Positions 10,205-43,048 of a stretch of 45,659 nt of DNA are shown here, one piece after another. Position 1 is the stretch's first letter. Each line of letters opens with the position of its first letter. The stretch comes from Bdellovibrionota bacterium. GTDB taxonomy: Bacteria; Bdellovibrionota_C; UBA2361; JBIKUX01. The notes below the pieces were generated by a model. It worked only from the letters and a program-made list of their open reading frames with translations. It ran no database searches and was not told the origin of the DNA. The stretch lies in NCBI GenBank assembly GCA_044347345.1, contig JBIKUX010000021.1:1-45659 (forward strand). Direction: 5' to 3'. The position numbers and the translations under genes are program-made.

Positions 10205-12358
10205 ATGACTCACGAAAAAAGCTCTCCTAATTACTCTACCTTAGAGATAAAAGGTCTTAGAGAAGAGATAAATTCTATAGACGAAACTCTCCTTAACCTG
10301 CTAGCAAAGCGGCGTCAGCTTAGTAAGGAAGTCATTGAGCACAAAGAGAAAGAGAACGGTCCGGTTCGGGATATACACCGAGAGGAGGAGCTACTTCGAG
10401 ACAGAATACGGCAGGGTAGAGCTCAAGGGCTGGATTCTCACCTAGTCACGCGCGTATTTCACGAAATAATTGATGATTCTATTCGGATTCAACATCGCAA
10501 ATTACAACGTTTTTACTCAACACCCTCAAAACGAGAAAGAATAGCATATCATGGAATTCAGAGCTCATACTGTGAGCAAGCTGCAAAGCGTCACTTTGAA
10601 AAATTATCGGCTGGAGAAGAAGGTAGAGTCGCGGAATTTCGGGGTTTCCCAACTTTTGAGGCAGTAGTTCAAGCCGTGCGTGACGGAGAGGCTGACAGTG
10701 CTATTCTTCCGATAGAAAATACATTATCAGGTGGAATAAATGAAGTTTTTGACCTACTCGTTCAAGCAGACTTAGCAATTATTGGTGAGGAAAAGTTTCG
10801 AATTGATCATCAGCTTTTAGCTACTCAAGATTCAGACCTAAGTTCTATTCGAAGCGTTCTTTGTAGCTATCTATCTTACGGCGATTGCCGGCAATTTTTG
10901 CATAAGTTAAACGTAAAAATAGAACATCTAAGTGATTCAGCTATGTGCGCTGAGCGTATCTCTGAATTAAATGATCCTTCCGTAGGTGCCATAGCTAGTG
11001 GAGAATCTGCTGAACGATTTGGGTTAAAATCCGTCGCTAGGGATATTGCCAATCATCACGATAATTTTATTCGGTATCTGGTTGTGGCCAAGGAGACAAG
11101 GCCAGTAGACCCACGAATACCTTGCAAAACATCTCTAATAATCGGGACACCTCAATATGCTGGTGCACTCGCTGATGTATTGTTAGTTTTTAAAAGGCAC
11201 GGAATTAATTTGACCAAATTAGAGAACCGCCCAGTTGCCGGCCAACCGTGGGAGGAGATCTTTTACCTAGATTTTGAAGGAAATATAGCTGTTGATGATA
11301 CTGCACTGGCCTTAAAAGAAGTAGCTCGCGCTACTCGCTTTTTGCGTGTCCTTGGAAGTTACCCTTCTTACGATCTAGCTCGAACTGCGGTATCGTCAAA
11401 TGATGTTGAATCATTGAAATCTTCAGCGTCTTATTCGGATAGCTCTAATCAAGCATTAACGTCCACATTTTTAGAATCTGAAGCATCGGGATTAACAAAA
11501 AGCGGAGAGAAGATTCCGGATTCCCCAACTAAGGGTAAAAAGAAGAGTTACACGCTAGCCAGTAGAGAACACAAACCTGAAGATACTATTATTGAAGTTA
11601 AAGGGGTTAGAATCGGAGGCTCATCATTTGTAACGATGGCTGGGCCCTGCTCTGTTGAATCGAGGGATCAAATTTTTGAATGTGCTCATCATGCCAAAGA
11701 GTCTGGAGCCTTAATATTACGAGGGGGATGTTTTAAACCTCGTACTTCCCCCTACAGCTTCCAAGGATTAGGTATGGAAGGTGTAAAGCTATTAGCTGAG
11801 GCCGGAGAAGCTTACTCTCTGCCAATAATAACTGAGGTTATGGCTCCAGAAGACGTAGAGCCCGTGGCAGAGTTATCTGACATGTTGCAAATAGGCGCTA
11901 GGAATATGCAGAATTTTACTCTTCTTAAGGCGGTAGGTAGAACAACTAGACCAGTGCTACTCAAGCGCGGAATGAGTTCCTCTTTGGAAGACTTGTTGAA
12001 TGCCGCGGAGTATATACTAGCGCAAGGTAACCAGCAGGTTATTTTATGTGAGCGAGGGATACGGACCTTTGAAACTTGGACTCGTTCAACATTAGATGTG
12101 GCTGCCGTTCCTGTGCTACGACGAGAGAGTCATCTTCCAGTTATTATAGACCCTTCTCATGCGGCAGGAGAGCGAGATCTGGTGCCGTCGTTAGCTCGAG
12201 CATCAAAAGCAGTTGGTGCTCATGGAGTAATAATTGAATTTCATCCGAAGCCGGAACAAGCATTGAGTGATGGACCTCAAGCTCTTCGATTTCCGCAGAT
12301 ACTCAAACTTATAAGAGAGCTTGAAGGAGCAACTGTGCCTTGTTTTGATCTTTGCTGA
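10205..12358 (+). CDS. Fusion of chorismate mutase (AroQ), prephenate dehydratase-like + ACT domains, and type I-beta DAHP synthase
   Basis: Aro[71 protein letters not shown] synthase: [53 protein letters not shown]. Confidence 0.92.
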
Positions 12359-12369
12359 TAAAAACTAAG

Positions 12370-13515
12370 ATGAGTAGTCATTTTTCTACCCAAGTTAAAA
12401 TCGAGTCTGAACATCCATACTTTGTTGAAATAGGTTCGGGTTGTCTTTGGAGTCTTGCCTCCTATCCTAAGGTACTTGACGCCAGTAAGGTTGTAATAGT
12501 TGCAGACCCTATCATAAAGGTAGTGGATGAGATTACTGCAAAGATAAGTCGTGAGTTTCATCTGATTTATAAACAGATAACGGAAGACGACAAAAACATT
12601 GAGACCATCAAATTCTTATGGGAGCTTTTTGCTAACTTAGCTTTAGATCGAAAAAGTTTAGTAATCGCCGTTGGTGGTGGAGCCTTAACTGATACAGTAG
12701 GATTTGCAGCTAGTACATTTATGCGCGGCATAGATGTCATAAACTGCCCTACTACCATCTTAGGTCAAGCTGACGCCGCTGTTGGTGGTAAAACTGGAAT
12801 AAATTTATCTGGTGTAAAAAATCTGATAGGGAGTTTCAGTTCCCCCGTTGCCGTGTTTGTTGATGTAAAGACCCTCTATACTTTGCCGCCTCGAGAAGCT
12901 AAAGCCGGATGTGCTGAAATTGTTAAACACGCGTTCATAACATCTTCGCAAGATATTAACGATGTAAGGGAGGCTCTTGAAGTTTTTCCTTTTCGGCAGA
13001 ATTTGTTGTTAACGCCAGAATTTGATAACCAACTTGTGTCTCTTTTGGCTAGAACGATTGCGATTAAAGCCGAGATAGTCAGTCGCGACCCATTAGAGCT
13101 TTTAGGATATCGAAAACTTCTCAACTTTGGTCATACAATCGGTCATGCTTTTGAAGCATGCTCTCATGAAAGCGATTACTCAAGTACCCCTCTTTTACAC
13201 GGAGAAGCTGTAAGCATTGGAATGGTTGGTGAAGCATTTCTTTCAGTGGCCTCCAAGAAGTGTGACCTTGCAGTTCTAAGTACCCTTGAATCGATACTTT
13301 TTAGTTTAGGGCTTCCCATTCGAACTCCTTTAGCCACATCCGTTGCGCCTGAGGTCTTATTGACGAAAATTCGTGCAGATAAAAAAAATGACTTTGGTGC
13401 CGTTCGTTGGACTCTTCTATCTGGTCTAGGAAGTGCGGTGTCCGATCAAACTATACAAGAAGACTTGTTACTTGATCTATTTCAGTATCTTGATTCTCCT
13501 TACTCTGGAGCTTAA
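12370..13515 (+). CDS. aroB: 3-dehydroquinate synthase
   Basis: GGGALTDTVGFAASTFMRG, PTT..DAAVGGKTGIN, KNLIG, LNFGHTIGHAFE, HGEAVSIG. ATG at 12370 preferred over TTG at 12352. Confidence 0.95.
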   Translation: MSSHFSTQVKIESEHPYFVEIGSGCLWSLASYPKVLDASKVVIVADPIIKVVDEITAKISREFHLIYKQITEDDKNIETIKFLWELFANLALDRKSLVIAVGGGALTDTVGFAASTFMRGIDVINCPTTILGQADAAVGGKTGINLSGVKNLIGSFSSPVAVFVDVKTLYTLPPREAKAGCAEIVKHAFITSSQDINDVREALEVFPFRQNLLLTPEFDNQLVSLLARTIAIKAEIVSRDPLELLGYRKLLNFGHTIGHAFEACSHESDYSSTPLLHGEAVSIGMVGEAFLSVASKKCDLAVLSTLESILFSLGLPIRTPLATSVAPEVLLTKIRADKKNDFGAVRWTLLSGLGSAVSDQTIQEDLLLDLFQYLDSPYSGA

Positions 13516-13518
13516 TAA

Positions 13519-14046
13519 ATGAGAGTAGTACTTATCGGATTTATGGGCTCAGGAAAAAGTACTGTAGCAAGCCTCCTGGGTAGTATGTATAGGAAGCTAC
13601 AAGTAATCGATCTTGACTCAGAAATTCTTCGTACTCATGACTATAAAAACATTTCACAACTCTTTGCTGAACGTGGGAATGAATACTTTCGACAGCAAGA
13701 AAAACAAGTAGCAGAACGATTTAACACTCTTTCATCAGTAGTTTTATCACCTGGAGCGGGAGTAGTAGAATATCCCGAAACCATGAAGGCACTTTTAACG
13801 CCAGGCACTTACTCTATTTATCTTTACGCTTCTTTCAACTCAATATGTCAAAGAGTCACAGACATCGCCAATAGACCATTATTTAAGAATGCTGATGCAG
13901 CATTGGAGCTATACAATCGTCGTCTGCCACTTTACAATAAATACTGTACTGTAGCTATCGATACAACAAACTTGTCTCCAAGCGCTGTAGCAGAAATAAT
14001 TTCTGCAATGATTACACCCACAACTATTATAAAGAGAAGTAATTGA
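13519..14046 (+). CDS. aroK: Shikimate kinase
   Basis: LIGFMGSGKST (Walker A), IDLD, FRQQE, RPL and R..LY motifs; operon context. Confidence 0.93.
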   Translation: MRVVLIGFMGSGKSTVASLLGSMYRKLQVIDLDSEILRTHDYKNISQLFAERGNEYFRQQEKQVAERFNTLSSVVLSPGAGVVEYPETMKALLTPGTYSIYLYASFNSICQRVTDIANRPLFKNADAALELYNRRLPLYNKYCTVAIDTTNLSPSAVAEIISAMITPTTIIKRSN

Positions 14047-14080
14047 TTTATTAAGTCAGCTTATCTACGGTAGATTTTTT

Positions 14081-14902
14081 ATGAGCTTCAAACAAAATCT
14101 GTGTATTGTAATTGGAGATCCTGTAGAACACTCTCTATCACCTAAAATGCATCAATTTGGCTATGAGGCTTTAAATTTAGCTGATACTTGGAGATTTGCT
14201 CCTTGTCACGTGCGGCCCGAAAATCTTGAAAGTGCTGTTTCAGGTATTCGAGCTCTATCAATTCGTGGTGCAAGTGTAACGTTACCCCATAAAGAAGCAG
14301 TAATTCCCTATCTTGACTCCGTAGATCCTCTTGCTCGCCGGATAGGTGCAGTCAATACAATCGTCAATGATAATGGGTACCTCACAGGGTATAATACTGA
14401 CTATTACGGGATAGTTGACCCATTAAATGCTAAAATGAATCTTCAGAATGAGCGAGTTTTATTAATGGGAGCCGGGGGAGCAGCTCGTGCTGCGGCTATT
14501 GCTCTCTCTGATTTCGGGGCTTTAGTGACTATCGTAAATAGAACTGATAGCAAGGCTAATTATTTAGCTAATCAAATTAATAATTTGAATGTAGTTTCAT
14601 CTGAGTTTAATAACCTAGCTCATTGTGTATCTCAAGCTAAAATAATAGTTAATTGTACCTCGGTTGGAATGGTTCCCAATCTAAATCAGTGCCTCATAGA
14701 ACAAGATTGGCTGACCGTTAATCACGTAGTGTTTGATACAGTGTACACGCCACAAAATACTCTTTTGCTAAAGCGAGCTAGATTAAAAGGTGCTGTAACT
14801 ATCTTCGGTACTGAAATGCTTCTTGCTCAGGGAGGCAAGCAATTCACCCTATACACAAATCAACCGGCACCAATTGATGCTATGGCTAAAGTATTCGTTT
14901 AA
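14081..14902 (+). CDS. aroE: Shikimate dehydrogenase
   Basis: GDPVEHSLSPKMH, SVTLPHK, IGAVNT, GYNTD, GAGGAARA, NRT, VNCTSVGM. Confidence 0.95.
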   Translation: MSFKQNLCIVIGDPVEHSLSPKMHQFGYEALNLADTWRFAPCHVRPENLESAVSGIRALSIRGASVTLPHKEAVIPYLDSVDPLARRIGAVNTIVNDNGYLTGYNTDYYGIVDPLNAKMNLQNERVLLMGAGGAARAAAIALSDFGALVTIVNRTDSKANYLANQINNLNVVSSEFNNLAHCVSQAKIIVNCTSVGMVPNLNQCLIEQDWLTVNHVVFDTVYTPQNTLLLKRARLKGAVTIFGTEMLLAQGGKQFTLYTNQPAPIDAMAKVFV

Positions 14903-14928
14903 GATAATCAAGGTAAAGATTAATCACT

Positions 14929-15654
14929 ATGCACGCTAAATTATGCATTCCTTGTATGGCTTCTTCGGTTACTGAGGCTCATCATTTTTTAGATAAATAT
15001 GATACCAATCCTTCCGTTTGGTTTGAGCTATGGTTAGACTTAATTCAGGATATTATCGCTGACAGTGCAGTTGACAGTGCAGTTGACAGACTTACTCCTC
15101 TCTTAGACCGGATAAACAATAGAAGCATTGTATTATTTCGTCGCCCCGGGTTAGCAAAAATACACAGTTCTCGTAAAAAACGAAATGAGTTAATAACCCT
15201 TCTATCTCAATCTAACACTCTTCTTGATCTTGATCTTTTTTCTCAAGCTGATGATCTTCTAGCAGTACGGTCGGTAGCTCCATCTCAAAATCTTATATTG
15301 TCGTATCATAACTATAATGAAACTCCTTCGGATAAGGTGCTATTAGATATCGTAGATGCTTTAGTTGCCGAGAATCCAGCAATGATAAAGATAGCTTGCT
15401 ATTGCGCTTCTGCTGATGATGCTTTGAGACTATTAACTTTATTACGCACTATTATCCTCAAAAAAGGCTACCCTACCACCGTATTGGGAATGGGTCCTCA
15501 CGGGGTTATCACTCGTATCGCAGGGTCAATTTGGGGTAATGAGTTTCTTTTCGCTCCGCCATCTGGTGCTGTATCATCTGCTCCTGGTCAACTTACTTTT
15601 GAAGAATCGGTTTGGGCTCTTGATCTTATTAAAACGGCTATGACAAGAGGATAA
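14929..15654 (+). CDS. aroD: Type I 3-dehydroquinate dehydratase
   Basis: ILSYHNYNETP (catalytic His), IKIA (Schiff-base Lys), GMG..G..TRI, SAPGQ; operon context. Confidence 0.88.
   Translation: MHAKLCIPCMASSVTEAHHFLDKYDTNPSVWFELWLDLIQDIIADSAVDSAVDRLTPLLDRINNRSIVLFRRPGLAKIHSSRKKRNELITLLSQSNTLLDLDLFSQADDLLAVRSVAPSQNLILSYHNYNETPSDKVLLDIVDALVAENPAMIKIACYCASADDALRLLTLLRTIILKKGYPTTVLGMGPHGVITRIAGSIWGNEFLFAPPSGAVSSAPGQLTFEESVWALDLIKTAMTRG
15061..15089 (+). repeat. 12-bp in-frame tandem duplication
   Basis: GACAGTGCAGTT x2 plus GACAG, encoding DSAV-DSAV-D in aroD. Confidence 0.85.
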
Positions 15655-15663
15655 GTGATTATT

Positions 15664-16764
15664 ATGGCGGGCAATACTTTTGGACACCTATTCCGAGTAA
15701 CAACTTTTGGCGAATCTCACGGCGGTGCTGTAGGCGCAGTCATTGATGGTTGTCCACCAGGGCTTAAGTTAAGTGAAGATGATATTCAGCCTGAGCTTGA
15801 CAGAAGAAGGCCTGGCCAGAGCTCTCTTACAACTCCCCGTAAAGAGGCAGATACGATAAAACTTGCTTCGGGAGTATTTGAGGGTATGACCACAGGTACC
15901 CCTATCCTTCTAATTGCACACAATAATGATGCTCGACCGGGTGACTACAATAATTTAAAAGATCTCTACCGTCCTTCTCATGCTGATTATACTTATTACG
16001 CAAAGTACGGGCTTCGTGATTGGCGAGGTAGTGGCAGAGCATCAGCTCGTGAAACACTAGCTCGCGTTGCCGCTGGCGCGATAGCAAAAAAATTACTCCG
16101 TGAACAATTAGGGATAGAAACACTCGCATATGTTCAACAGGTTGGAAGTATTGTGACTGATTTTAATCCTAATGAGGCTACAACTGAGAAAATTGAACGT
16201 AGCTTGGTTCGATGTCCCGACCCTGAAGCTTCAAAAAAAATGGTGAGCCTGATTGAATCTATTCGAGATGAAGGAGACTCTATCGGAGGGATTATCGTTG
16301 GAAGAATCTCCGGAGTACCCGCTGGTTTTGGTGAGCCTGTATTCGATAAACTTCATGCTGAGTTAGGAAAAGCAATGTTAAGTATCAACGCTGTCAAGGG
16401 CTTTGATATCGGTAGTGGTTTTGCCGGAGTATCGCTACGCGGTAGCGTTCATAATGACCCCTTTATTACAGACAGTTGTGGAAGAGTACGTACAACAAAA
16501 AATCATGCTGGCGGTGTTCTAGGTGGCATATCATCTGGAGAAACAATTATTTTTCGAGTCGCTTTTAAACCAGTAGCTACTATCAGTAAACCTCAAGATA
16601 CCATCGACCACGTTAATAAATTACCCGCTGTAATAAAAGGCGAAGGTCGACATGATCCCTGTGTTTTGCCAAGAGCAGTACCAATCGTGGAAGCTATGTC
16701 AGCTTTAACTATTGCAGACCACTGGTTACGCCAACGAGCACAGTGTAATTTTACTCAAATCTAA
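15664..16764 (+). CDS. aroC: Chorismate synthase
   Basis: NTFG..FRVTTFGESHG, RRRPG, RPSHAD, RASARET, GDSIGG, GGISSG, GRHDPC. ATG at 15664. Confidence 0.97.
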   Translation: MAGNTFGHLFRVTTFGESHGGAVGAVIDGCPPGLKLSEDDIQPELDRRRPGQSSLTTPRKEADTIKLASGVFEGMTTGTPILLIAHNNDARPGDYNNLKDLYRPSHADYTYYAKYGLRDWRGSGRASARETLARVAAGAIAKKLLREQLGIETLAYVQQVGSIVTDFNPNEATTEKIERSLVRCPDPEASKKMVSLIESIRDEGDSIGGIIVGRISGVPAGFGEPVFDKLHAELGKAMLSINAVKGFDIGSGFAGVSLRGSVHNDPFITDSCGRVRTTKNHAGGVLGGISSGETIIFRVAFKPVATISKPQDTIDHVNKLPAVIKGEGRHDPCVLPRAVPIVEAMSALTIADHWLRQRAQCNFTQI

Positions 16765-23973: not shown

Positions 23974-25287
23974 ATGAGTAATTCTCAGAACAACCGAAAT
24001 CCACAGGTAATGACCGGAGTTTTCGTATTTTTAGTAGCTACAGCTATTATTTATGGGGCTAAAGCTGGGACTTTAAAATTTGTTAATAAGGCTACATTTG
24101 ATTCTGCTAAAGACGGCGCTACCTTAGCTATTCAGCTAATCGGAGTGATGGCTTTTTTTCTTGGTCTTATGCGAGTCTTAGAAGTTGGGGGTCTCATGCG
24201 ATGGCTTGCAAACGCATTAACTCCAATCGCCCGTAAACTATTTCCTGATGTTCCTGCTGGGCATCCTGCTATGGGCGCTATACTGTTGAACATATCAGCA
24301 AATATGCTGGGGCTTGGCAATGCGGCTACTCCGTTTGGCCTCAAGGCAATGGGTGAGCTGGCAAAATTATCTAACAGACCCGGAGTAGCTACGAACTCCA
24401 TGTGTATGTTTCTTGCGATAAATACTTCAAGTGTTACCTTGTTGCCACTCGGCGTTATAGGTGTTAGAGCTGCGGCTGGAGCAATCGATCCAACAGCTAT
24501 ATTTATTCCGTCACTTCTTGCCACTACGTGTTCAACAGCTGTAGCGATTATCTTGGGGTTAATATTTGCTCATTTCAGTAAAGATTCTATAGTGGTTCCT
24601 TCAATTGATCGCGTCACAAAAACTGCAGAACTATCCTCCGATAAACATTCATTAGTGAGTTCTTCACTTGGAAAATTTATCGGGCTTCTTCTTCCTTCTA
24701 TATTACTAATTATATTTGTTGTGAGGACGATATCTTCACCTCAACCACTACAATTTTTTTCAGGAGAATTTTGTCAAGACTGGTTTTTACCAACTTTACT
24801 CGTATCAATTATCGCTTTTGGTTTATATAGGGGAGTAAATATATATGAGGAAATTACCGAAGGAGCAAAAGAAGGGTTTCAGGTAGCTATACGAATTATC
24901 CCATTTTTAGTCACAATACTTGTAGCTATTGGTATTTTCCGAGCATCAGGATTATTAGATGTTATAATTCAAGAAATTTCGCCATTTACTTCTTTGGTTG
25001 GATTACCCGCAGAAACTCTTCCAGTTGCTTTGATAAGACCATTAAGCGGTAGCGGTTCCTTTGCGGTTATGAGCGCATTAATCTACCAAGATCCCAACTC
25101 CTACGCCTCTTATGTCGCCTCAGTTATGCAAGGAAGCACTGAAACAACCTTTTATGTACTTGCTGTTTACTTTGGATCAATAGGAATTACTCGAATAAGG
25201 TATACTTTATTTATTGCACTTGTTGCTGATATTGTTGGACTACTATCCTCTTGCTGGTGGAGTGCTCTTTTCTATACAGCACCTTAA
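23974..25287 (+). CDS. Fused SpmA/SpmB nucleoside-recognition (Gate) membrane protein
   Basis: LFPDVPAGHPA, ANMLGLGNAATPFGLKAM, FLAINTSS (SpmA); GAKEGF, RPLSGSGS, GSTETTFYVLAVYFGS (SpmB). Confidence 0.92.
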   Translation: MSNSQNNRNPQVMTGVFVFLVATAIIYGAKAGTLKFVNKATFDSAKDGATLAIQLIGVMAFFLGLMRVLEVGGLMRWLANALTPIARKLFPDVPAGHPAMGAILLNISANMLGLGNAATPFGLKAMGELAKLSNRPGVATNSMCMFLAINTSSVTLLPLGVIGVRAAAGAIDPTAIFIPSLLATTCSTAVAIILGLIFAHFSKDSIVVPSIDRVTKTAELSSDKHSLVSSSLGKFIGLLLPSILLIIFVVRTISSPQPLQFFSGEFCQDWFLPTLLVSIIAFGLYRGVNIYEEITEGAKEGFQVAIRIIPFLVTILVAIGIFRASGLLDVIIQEISPFTSLVGLPAETLPVALIRPLSGSGSFAVMSALIYQDPNSYASYVASVMQGSTETTFYVLAVYFGSIGITRIRYTLFIALVADIVGLLSSCWWSALFYTAP

Positions 25288-25325
25288 CGAGTAAATGAAA
25301 TATTTTTTGGTTTATGCACCATCAG

Positions 25326-26603
25326 TCAATCATTAGTCAGCTTATATTTTACATCTTCAGGCATAGCTAACCATTCACGCTCGACAGATTCGGCTAAAGC
25401 AGAAAATAGTGGATCGCACTCTGAAAGAAGTGCAGTGTTACCATCGTCTCGTATTACATGAAGCATTCCTTTAGATACTCTCTCAGCTACCGAACGAGTC
25501 TTTACGATATGAAGGTAATACTTTGGATCATATCCTAGAGATGTACTGATTTTTTGAGCTGTTTCTAAAAGATCCTCTCGCTGTTTAGGTTCTGATGGTA
25601 GCCTAACAGTTTTTAATAATCGTCTGTTAAGTAAGCGCTCAGCAAGGTCCGCTAACACTATATCTTTGGAGCTTTGCCATCTAAAAAGATGATATCTCCA
25701 CCATGGTTCGCGCATGGCAAAAATCATATCCAAAGATAGCTCAGAAGAAGATGATACTGAGAGAACACTATCCATAGTTTCGTCAGACCAACGTAAGTCT
25801 CTCTCTACCGACTTAGCACGGTCCACCACAGCGCACATAAGAGCATCTGCGGCGAGCAGTACTCGATGTTGATATAGTTGTCGATACATAGCATGACGAG
25901 AAACAGCAAAGTGCATCATTGCATCAAGACGATTTTCACGAAGCGCTAAGTGTCCAAACTCATCTATTGTAAGGGACTCAATAATTGCTTCAATATTATA
26001 CTTACCATAAGCTACTCCAGCCATAACACTGTCAGCAACACACCAATTACCTCTATCTACATTCCATCCTCCTCCACTGATACACTCCCAAGTCCAAGCA
26101 GGAAGTAAATCATCATGCTTTAAAATTTTCACAATTATTTCGATCATCTCGTCAGTTAATTTCGGCACCTCATGTTTTATTCCCGCGCTATCTAAGATAA
26201 TTTTTTCAGATAAAATTTCGTGAGAATCGTCTTCGTTTGGAAACCAAGCCCTAAAAGCTAAGTGAGATCCAGGAGCAAGATGCCCGATATCATGAAGTAA
26301 CGCCGCTATGGTTACCATAGGCCAGTAATATCTAACCTCATCTTGTCGTGCCAGCGAAATATCACTTTTAGAGAGTAAATTTCGCATTGTCAGATCTGCC
26401 AAATAGCCTACTCCTAAAGAATGACCAAATCTTGAATGTTCAGAGAACATATAAACTAAGCGGGTATTGGCAGTTTGGTGAATTTCTCGTAGTCGCTGCA
26501 TCCATGATGAATTTATTAGAGCAATAATTAAATCAAAGGCTGGATGATCAGATGAAAAAGAGAGTGCCTGAACAACTACATCAGCAAAAGTCACTCTCTT
26601 CAT
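25326..26603 (-). CDS. HD-domain phosphohydrolase (SAMHD1/YdhJ-like dNTP triphosphohydrolase family)
   Basis: MQRLREIHQ, HSRFGHSLGV, ALLHDIGH, SHE, VDR, MYRQLYQH, RLLNRRLLK. Confidence 0.88.
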   Translation of the reverse strand: MKRVTFADVVVQALSFSSDHPAFDLIIALINSSWMQRLREIHQTANTRLVYMFSEHSRFGHSLGVGYLADLTMRNLLSKSDISLARQDEVRYYWPMVTIAALLHDIGHLAPGSHLAFRAWFPNEDDSHEILSEKIILDSAGIKHEVPKLTDEMIEIIVKILKHDDLLPAWTWECISGGGWNVDRGNWCVADSVMAGVAYGKYNIEAIIESLTIDEFGHLALRENRLDAMMHFAVSRHAMYRQLYQHRVLLAADALMCAVVDRAKSVERDLRWSDETMDSVLSVSSSSELSLDMIFAMREPWWRYHLFRWQSSKDIVLADLAERLLNRRLLKTVRLPSEPKQREDLLETAQKISTSLGYDPKYYLHIVKTRSVAERVSKGMLHVIRDDGNTALLSECDPLFSALAESVEREWLAMPEDVKYKLTND

Positions 26604-27751
26604 ACTTCTTCTCCAGTGGCAAGTAACATTTGAGATTGTATTTTGATACCATATGTTATCAATGAATCCCGAGGACGCGCTTGGGCAGTTAGCAGCCGAA
26701 TCGAAGACACTCCCAAATTGCGCAAAATTGCCGCTCCAACTCCGTATGCTCGCATTGCATGGGCACTGCCGGTGCCAAACTCCTCATCTTGGCCTGATAT
26801 TTGTTTTGATAACCAGCCCACTTCTGGCCTTCTAAGATAGACAACTACCCCTCTACCTTCTAACCCGATTCTCTCGAGAGCTAACTCCAGTTGTCTACGA
26901 CTTTCACCACCAAATACATCAGTAAATGTTTGCTCTGATTGTACTCGCACTAAGATAGCTTCTTCTGGTCGCCAAAAACCCTTAACTAGAGCTATATGCT
27001 CACCTTCATGAAAGGAAGAGCGAAAAATAATAGAGCGAAGAATTCCAGCTCGTTTTGTAGGTAAGTTTGCCTCCGCAATTCGCTCAACAATAGTTCCTAG
27101 TATGAGTGATCTATAAATAATATCTTCTATTCGATAAATAGGATAATTTTTAAGTTTAGCAAACGCATGCAGCTCAGTTTCAGTTGGATATTCGCCGTTC
27201 TCATTTAGTACCTCCACATACAAAGCTGCATCCTGCTGCCAAACACTTTCAACGATTGATAAAGCGGCTTCAGGAGCATCTGCTCTTGCCAAAACCCCTC
27301 CTTGATGAGCGGCTACGGGGAATATATGCCCGGGTTGAACAATCAAATGTGGGGATGGATTAGACGACCCTAACACTCTAACCGTAGTGGCACGATCAGC
27401 GGCACTAATTCCAGTTGTAACTCCTTCTCGTGCTTCAACCCCTGAAAGTCCCTTTTGAATCGGGATAGATCGAATTCCTTGACCAAAGAAATACCCTTTT
27501 TGATCATCTATTAAACGAGTAATAGTTTGCAAATTCAAAGCCTCTACTCGGGATGCGGAAAGAGCTACTCGCAAATGACCACCTCCATAATTTAAAGTCT
27601 CTGAAATTAAAGCTTCAGTAGCCTCTCGCGCGGCTACAACAAGAATACCGCGTACATTACTAGGCTGAATTTTTTGAATTATTAGCGCAATACGACGATT
27701 TCTGAAGTGGGTGTCAATCGATGAATATATATTTAACGAATCAGTAGTCAT
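26600..27751 (-). CDS. RibBA-like protein (DHBP synthase + GTP cyclohydrolase II folds) with degenerate active sites
   Basis: Retains EAREGVTTGISAADRATT, PGHIFP, GGVLAR, EHIALVKG, LVRVQSE and YGVGAAILRNLGV, but catalytic motifs are altered (see findings). Confidence 0.85.
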   Translation of the reverse strand: MTTDSLNIYSSIDTHFRNRRIALIIQKIQPSNVRGILVVAAREATEALISETLNYGGGHLRVALSASRVEALNLQTITRLIDDQKGYFFGQGIRSIPIQKGLSGVEAREGVTTGISAADRATTVRVLGSSNPSPHLIVQPGHIFPVAAHQGGVLARADAPEAALSIVESVWQQDAALYVEVLNENGEYPTETELHAFAKLKNYPIYRIEDIIYRSLILGTIVERIAEANLPTKRAGILRSIIFRSSFHEGEHIALVKGFWRPEEAILVRVQSEQTFTDVFGGESRRQLELALERIGLEGRGVVVYLRRPEVGWLSKQISGQDEEFGTGSAHAMRAYGVGAAILRNLGVSSIRLLTAQARPRDSLITYGIKIQSQMLLATGEEV

Positions 27752-27984
27752 AGAATAGCTGTTATCAGTTACCGCAAATTTTATACTTTAGAATATGAGT
27801 CTTTTTTTCCTTAATAAAAAGCTTATCTGTATATAACTAATATAATTGTTTTTTATGACATAACAGTCGCACTTTCCTCACAAATTCCATTCTTTGTACT
27901 CATAGTGTTTTGGCTATCTCAAGAAAATCACCTGCAAAGTCGATTACCTCCTAATCAATTGTAATGAAGTAACAGTGGGGTAAA

Positions 27985-28485
27985 ATGATAAAGACGTTAC
28001 GAAAAAATAAAACGTCACTTAATATAGATCCACTAATCTTTGACATAGCAAAAATTTCAGAAGAGCCTATCCTATTAACTAAGGCTCGCCGAACTGCGTT
28101 TATTGCTCGCTTTATTGTTCTGCGTGAATCAAAAAGAACTAGAGCTCACAGGGTTATTGAACAACTTGAATGGCACGATGAAACCACCGCAGAAGAGTTG
28201 TGTGAACGCTTTAGGTCAATTTTTAGCGATAATGGCGATAATATGGAACCAGTTAATAGAGATTTAAGACGGGCACTTGCCCACGCTAACAGATCTCTCA
28301 CTTACTTTGTGAGGGAGTATGCTGACCGAGCTACAAAAAACTTTATCGATGCGCTATTTGACTACGAAAGGTCAAACTTACTTTTATTCAGAGGTGACGA
28401 AAAACCAAAACCGGGTGGATGGCTTCTACCGTCTGAACTTAAGCGATCAATAGTTAACATTGATGCGAACCATTACTTAGAATAA
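27985..28485 (+). CDS. Hypothetical helical cytoplasmic protein
   Basis: 166-aa ORF with natural-looking amphipathic, Arg/Glu-rich composition. No family recognised. Confidence 0.65.
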   Translation: MIKTLRKNKTSLNIDPLIFDIAKISEEPILLTKARRTAFIARFIVLRESKRTRAHRVIEQLEWHDETTAEELCERFRSIFSDNGDNMEPVNRDLRRALAHANRSLTYFVREYADRATKNFIDALFDYERSNLLLFRGDEKPKPGGWLLPSELKRSIVNIDANHYLE

Positions 28486-28754: not shown

Positions 28755-29282
28755 TCAGGCCACAGCTCGATGAACACAATTGTTAGCAGAACTATTATTT
28801 GAGGTATTTTCAAGGAATTCGGCATCAACAATTTGTTGTAATTCTTCTATAAGAGAACCAATGGCATAAGCCCAAACATATTGCCCAGATTTATATCCTG
28901 TAATCACCTCAGCTATTTCGCCCTTATCTTCTTCCTTATGCTTTATGAACAAGCTACTACCATCAGTCAAAAGTAGCATATGTTGCGGTTTTTGCATTAA
29001 TGAAGGGATATTATTTCGAAGATACTCAATACCCTGCCTAAACCTATTTACCGGCAAGCCCTCTCGTTTCATTCGGAACAACCAACACAGTAAAATTACA
29101 TCACTGTAAGAATATCTTCGTCGGCCTCGAGTAACCATTTTACCGCTACACGGAACTAGATTGGTGCGTGCATAGTAATTAAGAAGCGCTAAACCTATCT
29201 TTTCATCGCTACCTACCATTACCCTCAGTACTCGTTGCACTTCTTTGGCAGTAAATTCACGCTCTAGTACAAAAACATTCAT
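28755..29282 (-). CDS. MerR-type helix-turn-helix transcriptional regulator
   Basis: FTAKEV..LLNYYARTNLVPCS..GRRRYSYSDVILL..MKREGLPV, followed by LLLTDG, as in metal-independent MerR-like regulators. Confidence 0.8.
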   Translation of the reverse strand: MNVFVLEREFTAKEVQRVLRVMVGSDEKIGLALLNYYARTNLVPCSGKMVTRGRRRYSYSDVILLCWLFRMKREGLPVNRFRQGIEYLRNNIPSLMQKPQHMLLLTDGSSLFIKHKEEDKGEIAEVITGYKSGQYVWAYAIGSLIEELQQIVDAEFLENTSNNSSANNCVHRAVA

Positions 29283-41521: not shown

Positions 41522-43048
41522 CTAAGGCCTTTTCCACTCGCGCCATCTTCTCCGCAATAGAGCCGCTTTATCTCGTCGCCAAAAACGAAAACTACGTCGC
41601 TTATGATTTAGCCAAAAAAGCACGTAGCCTCCATTACCGAGCATAAATCGGAGTACTCCAGCCCTGAATGAAGGTACATAACAGAGAAAATGTGACAACA
41701 TGTGGAGCTCTGTCTTTACAAAATGCCCTACCGAATGGGGAGGCGAAAACATACCGTAATCCGGAATCGATTTACCTTGTCGCCGATGAGTCTCTATCAC
41801 TCGAAAAGCTCGCCATCTTTTTTCATTCGCCATAAGACGGTTTGATGCCAGCGCTTCATCTCGAGACACTTCAACAGATTTGAGCTTACCATCTGATACT
41901 AATCTATCGTATACGGCCGTGCCCTTAGCAGTGCGAATAAGACCAAAACTCCATCCATCATAAAAATTTACTGAATCATTAGGGGGCGCCATCCAAGGAT
42001 CCCCAACAGAAATATCGGCAAATTCTGATGTCGCATCAAAGCAAGTCAAACATCTGGAAGGAGTATATAATCGATATAAAATATTTATCACTTCAATAGA
42101 GGAAGGACGATACCCAAATTTTGATCCAAAATATACAGGATAAAGGGAACCATTTTTGCGCTCAATATGCGGAGAACCAGGATGTTTCCCAACTCGAGAG
42201 ATAAACTTTTTAGCACCATCTACATTAACACCTAAAGTCTCCCAAATAACTGAGAAAGCCTCATGCTCAATAGCAGCGTGACAAAAAAGCCCGATTGTAA
42301 AAGTTATTTTATCCCTCAGTCTCGAGTCTAATGCTTTAGCTTTTAAAATACCATGAATTTGACAAGGGAGCCCGACCACAGCGACTTTCCCATCTAAGTC
42401 ACGAACAGCATCGAGAACTGAATTAGTCGGCGAAATTGCATACTTTGATTTCATAGTAGAGATAATGTCCTCTCTAGTTCGAGCCAATATCGGAGAACCC
42501 ATCCATAAAATGGATTCATGAGATCCTACGGTAACTGCACCATGAATCTCACCTCTACTCAGCAAATCAAGTAAAATTGCTGTTACTAATCCTCCTGAAG
42601 TAGATCTTTCACGAATCTCCGGATCGGTAGCATGCGCTACAACACTGCGCTCAAAGTACCCATGTGTAGCAGTAACTTCCGCCGGCCGTTTAAAAACCTC
42701 CTGATGATGAGTAAGCAAATCAAACTCGTCTCCAGGACACACTTTTACACATAAATCACAATCTGTGCATGAATTAAGATCTTTAACAACAGGATATTCC
42801 TCCTCATCTCGTCCGAGAACTTTTGTCGGACATATCCCGACGCAAGTTCCGCACCGATGGCAAAGTCCATTATCAATAATCTGAGCCAGCGACTTTAGAG
42901 CTCTCGGCAATTCAGCTTGCTCAGATGGGGGCCATTCCGAAGGACTTAAAAATGGAGTTAAAGAAAATTTTTCTATCGGGTGTTTTCTAAGAGGAATAGG
43001 GGTATCGGAAATCACTGATAAAAATCTACTTCCTTTTTTTGATACCAC
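41522..43048 (-). CDS. FrhB/FdhB-family (F420 hydrogenase beta subunit-like) Fe-S flavoprotein with N-terminal 2x[4Fe-4S] ferredoxin
   Basis: CHRCGTCVGICP and CTDCDLCVKVCP; STSGGLVT, SKY, VGLPCQ, IGLFC, CLTCFD..ADISVGDPW, IRTAKG. GTG start. Confidence 0.88.
   Translation of the reverse strand: MVSKKGSRFLSVISDTPIPLRKHPIEKFSLTPFLSPSEWPPSEQAELPRALKSLAQIIDNGLCHRCGTCVGICPTKVLGRDEEEYPVVKDLNSCTDCDLCVKVCPGDEFDLLTHHQEVFKRPAEVTATHGYFERSVVAHATDPEIRERSTSGGLVTAILLDLLSRGEIHGAVTVGSHESILWMGSPILARTREDIISTMKSKYAISPTNSVLDAVRDLDGKVAVVGLPCQIHGILKAKALDSRLRDKITFTIGLFCHAAIEHEAFSVIWETLGVNVDGAKKFISRVGKHPGSPHIERKNGSLYPVYFGSKFGYRPSSIEVINILYRLYTPSRCLTCFDATSEFADISVGDPWMAPPNDSVNFYDGWSFGLIRTAKGTAVYDRLVSDGKLKSVEVSRDEALASNRLMANEKRWRAFRVIETHRRQGKSIPDYGMFSPPHSVGHFVKTELHMLSHFLCYVPSFRAGVLRFMLGNGGYVLFWLNHKRRSFRFWRRDKAALLRRRWREWKRP

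Follow-up and report, generated by a model that had tools for sequence, protein, structure and literature searches.

Why would a predicted nucleotide hydrolase be encoded together with a relative of the riboflavin enzyme RibBA that seems to have lost both of its active sites? This question is raised by two overlapping genes, which we call RB and HD, in a 45,659-nucleotide stretch of DNA from a Bdellovibrionota bacterium (contig JBIKUX010000021.1). Below, "the window" means this whole stretch. The features of the pair are:

26600 to 27751, minus strand: RB, a catalytically degenerate RibBA paralog of 383 amino acids with a DHBP-synthase-like and a GTP-cyclohydrolase-II-like domain (open reading frame, Pfam domains and loss of motifs)
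25326 to 26603, minus strand: HD, a predicted HD-domain phosphohydrolase of the EF1143/SAMHD1 type, 425 amino acids, from a distinct subfamily with the signatures Q-T-[AG]-N and S-G-G-G-W-N-x-D-R-G-N-W
26600 to 26603, minus strand: ATGA, shared by the stop of RB and the start of HD (read in the sequence)
26611 to 26614, minus strand: GGAG, similar to a Shine-Dalgarno sequence, 7 nucleotides before the ATG of HD and within the 3' end of RB (putative function)

We propose that HD would be an active, effector-regulated nucleoside triphosphate (NTP) phosphohydrolase. Its rebuilt 2'/3' gate would shift it away from ordinary deoxynucleoside triphosphates (dNTPs), most plausibly towards substrates with a 2'-hydroxyl group. 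RB would be a non-catalytic accessory, made in stoichiometric amounts, that links HD to the GTP-consuming riboflavin branch. We give this joint reading a probability of roughly 0.45. Our literature searches, which covered sources other than subscription journals, found no description of a pair of an HD protein and a pseudo-RibBA.

RB and HD form a conserved operon

The open reading frame of RB ends in a TGA that begins inside the start codon (ATG) of HD. An earlier reading of this DNA, made from the sequence alone, had pointed to this overlap and had seen no other rib gene in the window. Both observations hold: a Pfam scan of the 37 open reading frames in the window identified no riboflavin gene besides RB.

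We examined the pair in related genomes. All of these are metagenome-assembled, and a gene that we call absent was not found in those that were searched. At 75 independent contig loci (from assemblies labelled Bdellovibrionota, Bdellovibrionales, Oligoflexia, "delta proteobacterium" or similar), RB is immediately upstream of HD and on the same strand in 67. If the first start codon is used, the gap between the two genes is from -10 to +30 bases in 64 of these 67 pairs, and it is -4, as in the window, in 38. At the remaining eight loci, the pair is cut by the end of the contig (L018, L053, and L086), RB is absent within 3 kb (L019 and L032), RB is on the opposite strand (L030), or a RibBA gene lies downstream of HD (L041 and L072).

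HD is present in 117 of the 124 species genomes of the window's GTDB phylum. In the home order, 36 relatives have HD, and in 27 of them RB directly precedes it (coordinates were read by eye). The other nine comprise one genome with RB nearby on the opposite strand, two in which the pair is split by contig ends (with RB-type genes confirmed at the ends, in L133 and L134), two with a canonical gene downstream, three that lack RB, and one unclear case. In other orders, the genes are adjacent in 25 of 31 HD-bearing genomes. The signatures of RB and HD are conserved in all of the orders examined within the phylum, and none of the genomes examined has RB without HD.

Could the pair be an anti-phage system that depletes or senses nucleotides? 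Bacterial relatives of dGTPase and SAMHD1 are reported to be nucleotide-depleting defence enzymes (PMC13519002, PMC12265719). The sequence-only reading had suggested a nucleotide-sensing system, and in a defence-like sense this does not stand. PADLOC gave no matches (E ≤ 0.01) for the four proteins that we searched. With HD in nearly every genome of the phylum and with conserved synteny, the distribution is neither patchy nor island-like. The open reading frames of the window are housekeeping genes or unassigned (Pfam, 37 open reading frames), with a shikimate operon, recA-lexA, a class II aminoacyl-tRNA synthetase, and SPFH proteins among them. The median ratio of nonsynonymous to synonymous substitution rates (dN/dS) for HD is 0.045, which is typical of a core enzyme; this median is from the 30 of 70 computed pairs for which dS was unsaturated, as dS is near saturation for most pairs. 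We therefore give a defence role almost no weight. The data fit a core operon that has been inherited vertically within an uncultured phylum of freshwater, Bdellovibrionota-like bacteria, as opposed to a mobile element or a defence module, and RB and HD are probably a core metabolic pair.

RB has lost both active sites and is under purifying selection

RB has the two domains of a bifunctional RibBA, in the same order: DHBP_synthase (PF00926, 113.5 bits) and GTP_cyclohydro2 (PF00925, 110.2 bits). It shares the collinear domains and the fold of the bifunctional enzyme from Mycobacterium tuberculosis (RibA2; PDB:4I14), but it has none of the catalytic motifs and is not in a rib operon. Its scores are far below the cut-offs for RibBA equivalogs (200 vs. 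569 bits for NF006803 and 197.7 vs. 513 bits for NF010626), and those against the domain models for RibA and RibB are also below the cut-offs. In the alignment of RB to 4I14 (E = 2.4e-39), PSNVRG replaces DRENEGD, RADAPE replaces RPGHTE, and the HSEC...RCDC site has no cysteines.

To compare many sequences, we used 72 RibBA-like genes that are adjacent to HD and 13 canonical paralogs from the same lineage, along with 41 positions at which the canonical sequences hardly vary. The 70 RB-type sequences match at 11 or fewer of these markers, while the 13 canonical RibBAs match at 39-41. (We considered whether the RibBA genes downstream of HD in L041 and L072 were rearranged copies of RB, but by these markers they are canonical.) In the DHBP-synthase half of RB, the RENEGD loop is replaced by a loop of variable length, and the G(H/Q)TE motif is reduced to its glutamate. 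In the GTP cyclohydrolase II half, the three cysteines of HSEC...RCDC (presumably the zinc ligands) are gone, as are EGRGIG, a conserved tyrosine, and NNPxK (which we take to be GTP-binding motifs). A segment of about 10 residues (LQD.G.DTV) is deleted as well, and the C-terminus is shorter. None of the 70 RB-type sequences has the cysteine triad or the EGRGIG, tyrosine, and NNPxK elements, which the 13 canonical paralogs have. All 13 RB-type genes that we examined from other orders lack them too and are equally degenerate.

Other parts of RB are conserved. It keeps the fold motifs TTGISAADRA, PGH.FP, GEH.ALVKG, and YG.GAQILR.LG, and an alignment of 40 sequences has 37 invariant columns. Some residues are conserved in RB where the canonical proteins differ (Met77, Gln271, Thr275, and Arg308), and glutamine replaces the histidine of VRVHSE in 67 of the 72 RibBA-like genes beside HD. 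The loss of the catalytic residues of both RibA and RibB agrees with the earlier view that this is a dead RibBA. From these patterns, RB is predicted to be unable to perform either reaction and yet to be kept by selection. Public records name RB genes as active DHBP synthases/GTP cyclohydrolases II, which is almost certainly wrong.

There is a half-way precedent for such a protein, namely a RibBA relative with one dead half. The second-best match to RB in PDB (E = 7e-33) is 6MNZ, a two-domain DHBP synthase whose C-terminal half resembles GTP cyclohydrolase II without the cysteines. The DHBP-synthase half of 6MNZ still has DRENEGD and RAGHTE; RB has lost these, and both of its halves are degenerate. 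We take 6MNZ to be of the type called RibBX, and we know of no protein of this type that is paired with an HD protein.

In a maximum-likelihood tree with 70 rows, a branch with SH-aLRT support of 100 sets all 34 RB rows apart from the others. The RB clade is separate from the canonical RibBA clade of the lineage and from 21 RibBAs from outside of it. A single old duplication fits this tree, whose root is not fixed. (The RB of the window has diverged further than the majority of its orthologs; it has a long terminal branch, 1.14, and its residues 26-27 are QK, where 65-67 of 72 sequences have DD.)

If both active sites are degenerate, RB might be a decaying relic without a function, and its position next to HD a historical accident. 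RB has been lost in several lineages, and three matches to RB contain a single in-frame stop each (G002:C125:42-1118, TAA; G053:C30:23852-24733, TGA; and G072:C61:6463-7302, TAA). These stops may be sequencing errors or early pseudogenization. However, the median dN/dS for RB is 0.097 (again from the 30 pairs, among 70, in which dS was not saturated), and it is 0.098 for the closest pair, at dS = 0.34. Because dN/dS is about 0.10, RB is under purifying selection and is not decaying. The invariant columns, the newly conserved residues, the position directly upstream of HD at most loci, and the retention of the RB clade across every order examined also argue against a relic. The selection data largely refute this explanation, and we consider it very improbable.

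HD resembles EF1143 but has a rebuilt sugar gate

HD is barely above the cut-off of Pfam's HD model (22.8 bits vs. 22), and its only match in NCBIfam is at chance level, to an unrelated HD family. Among proteins with solved structures, the closest by sequence is EF1143, a dGTP-activated dNTP triphosphohydrolase from Enterococcus faecalis (PDB:2O6I, 3IRH, 4LRL). Residues 20-406 of HD align to 2O6I with E = 6.7e-29 and about 23-25% identity. EF1143 is also the top PDB match for an AlphaFold 2 model of HD (TM-score of 0.79, Foldseek E = 3.7e-17), and the match includes the C-terminal lobe. (The model was built from 40 orthologs and has an average predicted local distance difference test score, or pLDDT, of 81.7.) Human SAMHD1 has a similar fold (Foldseek E of about 1e-10, TM-score of about 0.64), but its sequence similarity to HD is limited to roughly 100 N-terminal residues, and HD lacks the SAM domain.

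We then examined conservation among the orthologs of HD, which comprise 76 distinct sequences from 87 loci. (Residues are numbered as in the window's protein.) The following residues are invariant in all 76 sequences: Q43, T44, N46, R58, F59, H61, H104, D105, H108, H114, H128, E129, W180, N181, D183, R184, G185, N186, W187, D191, R236, Y240, Y244, H246, R327, and K331. Position 45 is alanine in 69 sequences and glycine in seven, and position 245 is glutamine in 70 and histidine in six. The signature is kept in 19 of 21 additional HD genes from other orders and from genomes without RB. As exceptions, we noted Ser-Val instead of Thr-Ala in G018, leucine at the position of Q245 in the source genome of G110, and a more divergent form in family f22. 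(The window's HD has also diverged further than the majority of its orthologs; it has V11, N31, H42, and L115, at positions where H, D, S, and T predominate.) A check suggested along with the sequence-only reading was whether the pair and its substitutions are conserved together. They are: RB and HD are adjacent at 67 of 75 loci, and both signatures are kept across orders.

To interpret these residues, we transferred the roles of residues in EF1143 onto HD with a residue-by-residue pairwise alignment. In the structural report on EF1143 (PMC3190883), the metal ligands are His66, His110, Asp111, and Asp183. The substrate contacts given there are Arg63, Tyr239 (which contacts a sugar hydroxyl), Leu49, His119, Tyr187, and Tyr243; the proposed catalytic pair is His129-Glu122; and the effector site for dGTP comprises Lys14, Asn36, Gln41, Arg44, Phe64, Arg326, and Lys330 (PMC3190883). 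HD keeps all four metal ligands (H61, H104, D105, and D183, the H..HD..D ligands that the sequence-only reading had recognized). It also keeps Arg63, Tyr239, and Tyr243 (Arg58, Tyr240, and Tyr244 in HD), and His114, His119, and His129 (His108, His114, and His128). Lys14 is outside the aligned span. The five effector residues that we could map (Gln41, Arg44, Phe64, Arg326, and Lys330) are all kept, as the invariant residues Q36, R39, F59, R327, and K331.

The nucleoside pocket differs at the positions that the sequence-only reading had named: QTA is opposite QLG, and NVDRGNWCVAD is opposite DADRMDYLLRD. Leu49 is replaced by Thr44 and Tyr187 by Trp187, both invariant. Gly50 is replaced by alanine or remains glycine, the next residue is the invariant Asn46, and WNVDRGNW takes the place of DADRMDY. 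There is also a one-residue insertion in GH(L)APGSH. Finally, the proposed catalytic acid (Glu122 in EF1143, Asp218 in SAMHD1) is lysine or arginine in 73 of the 76 orthologs, although its histidine partners (H108 and H128) are kept.

The corresponding residues of SAMHD1 suggest what the changes might mean. There, Leu150, Tyr315, and Tyr374 form a tight pocket around the base and the deoxyribose. Substituents at 2'-proR are excluded by Leu150 together with Tyr374, and the 3'-proS position is closed off by Tyr315; the 3'-hydroxyl is held by Gln149 and Asp319 (PMC7045340). Relative to SAMHD1, HD has threonine instead of Leu150, tryptophan instead of Tyr315, lysine or arginine instead of Asp218, and arginine instead of Lys312, so only Tyr244 remains of the deoxyribose-selective pocket. 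What we take to be the equivalents of Gln149, Arg164, His167, His206, Asp207, His210, His215, His233, Asp311, Asp319, Tyr374, and Gln375 are kept. The HD family thus seems to retain the contacts to the NTP, to the 3'-hydroxyl, and to the effector nucleotide, while two gate residues and the proposed catalytic acid have changed.

Alternatively, HD could be a housekeeping dNTPase. RB would then have an unrelated job (such as forming mixed dimers that modulate the active RibBA; pseudoenzymes often regulate their active paralogs), and adjacency would reflect co-regulation only. HD is the sole member of the SAMHD1/Dgt superfamily that we found in this genome: there is no second SAMHD1-like gene, and the model for Dgt-type dGTPases (TIGR01353) has no matches anywhere in this 95.8%-complete genome, HD included. 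The retained effector and catalytic residues, and the lineages that have HD but not RB (see below), also speak for a housekeeping dNTPase. But characterized dNTPases do not have threonine at the leucine gate (76/76 orthologs of HD) or lysine or arginine for the catalytic acid (73/76). Also, stop/start overlaps across orders suggest stoichiometric co-production rather than mere co-regulation, and every examined genome with RB also has HD. We consider this explanation rather unlikely.

The HD family is narrow. In a HMMER search of 1.84 billion representatives, just 52 clusters matched HD with E ≤ 1e-30. WNxDRGxW is confined to roughly the best 40 matches, and the lower-ranked matches that we inspected (down to rank 60) have the canonical QLG and DxDRxDY. 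Among the best 150 of 6,251 representative matches, no protein is a fusion of HD to RibBA. Some genomes of the phylum also have a paralogous clade of HD proteins (448-515 amino acids, 33-38% identical to HD), with QLS(T/V) and GGWNxDRG[DH]W, that is not linked to RB. (Examples are L124-L128, from G100, G088, G112, G076, and G021.)

Links to riboflavin genes

The genome has a canonical nrdR-ribBA-ribH operon elsewhere, and the RibA domain encoded there scores 236 bits (cut-off 206). A different arrangement occurs in two species of genus g21 (family f21). There, HD is followed after 9 bp by a bona fide RibBA and then by the reductase half and the deaminase half of RibD. (The loci are L101:4578-8168, from G020, and L102, from G032; RibD is split into two open reading frames.) This RibBA scores 612.9 bits (cut-off 569), has 37 of the 41 canonical markers, and is the only RibBA-like gene in those genomes. 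In the 70-row tree, it is outside the canonical clade of the lineage, which suggests that the rib cluster was replaced or acquired. In a third genome from f21 (G075), we did not find RibBA beside HD.

The g21 operon raises the possibility that this lineage uses HD as a dedicated phosphatase for the unassigned step of riboflavin synthesis. According to PMC12051542, the dephosphorylation step has no dedicated enzyme, and unrelated folds (HAD, IMPase, and histidine phosphatase) act in different organisms. The HD-RibBA-RibD genes of g21 correspond to the GTP branch up to the phosphorylated intermediate, and elsewhere the HD gene is closely linked to one for a protein with the RibBA fold. The six genomes of families f7 and f34 lack HD, RibBA, and RibH alike. 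And the polar residues gained in the pocket (Thr44, Asn46, Asn181, and Asn186) could suit a polyol chain.

On the other hand, HD keeps the contacts to the triphosphate, the effector, and the 3'-hydroxyl of a ring sugar, and most genomes carry their real rib genes at another site. The g21 layout is one event, with a RibBA from outside the lineage's clade. Furthermore, four genomes (G018, G041, G042, and G061) keep HD and have no matches to RibBA or RibH. The co-occurrence of HD with the pathway is imperfect, and the genomes concerned are all small; those without HD are 1.5-2.3 Mb, and their joint absences could reflect genome reduction. We think a riboflavin phosphatase is distinctly unlikely.

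A more elaborate version of this idea is an enzyme-pseudoenzyme complex. The dead RibBA would present a ligand (GTP or a ribosyl- or ribityl-aminopyrimidine phosphate) to an HD that had been rebuilt for a 2'-hydroxylated or open-chain sugar. HD would then be the lineage's specific riboflavin phosphatase, with guanine nucleotides exerting feed-forward control through the effector site that it retains. This reading, too, is distinctly unlikely.

A proposed role for the pair

We return to our proposal that HD is an NTP phosphohydrolase with a shifted substrate and that RB is its accessory. Judging from the retained residues, which include the catalytic histidines and the arginines that bind the triphosphate, HD is most likely a metal-dependent phosphohydrolase of the EF1143/SAMHD1 type that is active and is regulated by nucleoside triphosphates. 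The sugar gate has been rebuilt at 2' (Leu→Thr) and at 3'-proS (Tyr→Trp). The substrate may be an NTP other than the ordinary dNTPs, most plausibly one with a 2'-hydroxyl such as a guanine ribonucleotide, and the retained 3'-hydroxyl contacts argue for a nucleotide with a ring sugar. RB would be a non-catalytic accessory subunit that translational coupling holds at a fixed ratio to HD. As a scaffold or through a bound ligand, RB might connect HD to the branch of riboflavin synthesis that consumes GTP.

The sequence-only reading had cast RB as a GTP-binding or ribulose-5-phosphate-binding regulatory partner, and the need for RB as a GTP sensor is now weaker. Since HD retains five effector-site residues of its own, it need not borrow a GTP sensor; what we take to be the GTP-binding motifs are mostly lost from RB; and HD survives without RB.

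Several observations weigh against our proposal. First, HD with the same signature is found without RB in G017, G030, and G059, whose only RibBA is canonical and is elsewhere in the genome. HD is also found without RB in G018 (with nearly the same signature) and G061, neither of which has a match to RibBA or RibH, and in genus g21. As HD persists across these lineages, RB is dispensable. Second, because most of the GCHII residues that we presume to bind GTP are lost, it is uncertain that RB binds a ligand. Third, the tie between HD and riboflavin genes rests on one genus and a single evolutionary event. Fourth, lysine or arginine at the position of the proposed catalytic glutamate or aspartate could mean a different chemistry or weak activity. 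Fifth, as the paralogs with QLS share the tryptophan motif, this motif characterizes a wider group, which leaves Q-T-[AG]-N as the one signature restricted to the orthologs that are linked to RB. Sixth, both signature segments of HD are poorly modelled, with pLDDT under 50 at residues 44-55 and 179-197 (about 26015-26474 in the window). And seventh, there is no confident model of contact between HD and RB. (A prediction of the complex, with a 40-row alignment for each protein, had a score of 0.00, which we count neither for nor against.)

The two poorly modelled segments contain the most conserved signatures of HD, yet they are the sole long stretches with pLDDT below 50. Their ordering may depend on a ligand or a partner.

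The pair can be compared to OxsA and OxsB from the biosynthesis of oxetanocin. OxsA is a SAMHD1-like HD phosphohydrolase with a retooled pocket that acts on a non-canonical nucleotide, and its gene is beside that of an unrelated partner. But that partner is a radical SAM protein, and the genes are plasmid-borne and belong to secondary metabolism, not to a lineage-wide core operon. We liken the two systems by description only.

If HD and RB do cooperate, then they would be a clear bacterial case of a doubly dead duplicate of a metabolic enzyme that was recruited as the partner of an unrelated nucleotide hydrolase. If our proposal is correct, it would also widen the role of the SAMHD1 family beyond the control of dNTP pools. 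The invariant Leu→Thr and Tyr→Trp changes, at positions that exclude ribonucleotides from SAMHD1, amount to a natural experiment on sugar selectivity. And the rib operon of g21 poses a testable question: is HD the enzyme for a pathway step that lacks a dedicated one?

Neighbouring genes and RNA

Upstream of RB, the window contains these features:

27752 to 27984, no strand: the 233-bp divergent intergenic region between RB and o166 (sequence)
27985 to 28485, plus strand: o166, encoding an orphan, all-helical, arginine-rich protein of 166 amino acids, divergent from RB-HD (open reading frame and synteny with HD)
28755 to 29282, minus strand: a small MerR-like protein, beyond o166 (sub-threshold match to Pfam MerR_1)

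o166 adjoins the pair and was found by tblastn at 70 of the 87 loci, with 55-75% identity. It stays beside HD where RB is missing or has moved (L010, L032, L041, and L072). Among the sampled genomes of other orders, it is found in f22 only. The AlphaFold 2 model of o166 is confident and all helical (pLDDT 83.8). We found no family for it in Pfam, NCBIfam, or PADLOC, no usable match in the ESM Atlas, and no Foldseek match in PDB with E ≤ 0.001. We also considered a bromodomain-like helical bundle and rejected it: the top Z score from VIA-align was 5.0, which is within the noise for helical proteins. o166 has 500 homologs, and among the 120 matches listed, all are hypothetical or unnamed except for one "predicted transcriptional regulator."

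The MerR-like protein scores 20.4 bits against MerR_1, which is below the cut-off of 21.6. Its gene is present at 43 of the 87 loci, most of which extend only to about 3 kb upstream of HD. With o166 and the MerR-like gene, the conserved block reaches beyond RB and HD. At 21 of the loci L002-L087 (for example, L010:3338-3658), there is also a conserved open reading frame of about 107 amino acids between the MerR-like gene and o166; it presumably resembles the FlhB C-terminal-like domain, and it is not in the window.

A k-mer search of the intergenic regions between o166 and RB identified no lineage-wide operator motif (the best 8-mer occurs in 19 of 64 regions). As no Rfam family reached its gathering score in the window or at six related loci, neither an FMN riboswitch nor another known RNA element was detected there.

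Assembled RNA contigs from three metatranscriptome runs of one freshwater study cover two parts of this region: 25200-25594, with a depth of 3-4.4, and from about 27970 rightwards. No contig lies over RB or most of HD, and such contigs cannot show absence. The rightward contigs (1,419-1,445 bases) start at 27969-27979, 6-16 nucleotides before the ATG of o166. Their word depth of 17-18 is far above that over the 3' end of HD. At that length they would span both o166 and the convergent MerR-like gene; they prove neither a transcript start nor a strand.

Farther away, the shikimate-pathway operon (10205-16764) begins with a 717-amino-acid fusion of chorismate mutase, prephenate dehydratase, and DAHP synthase, and it continues with DHQ synthase, shikimate kinase, shikimate dehydrogenase, type I dehydroquinase, and chorismate synthase. 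Next to recA-lexA, at 41522-43048, is a gene for an FrhB/FdhB-type protein (of the coenzyme F420 hydrogenase/dehydrogenase beta family) with a 4Fe-4S dicluster domain, which is unusual in a Bdellovibrio-like organism.

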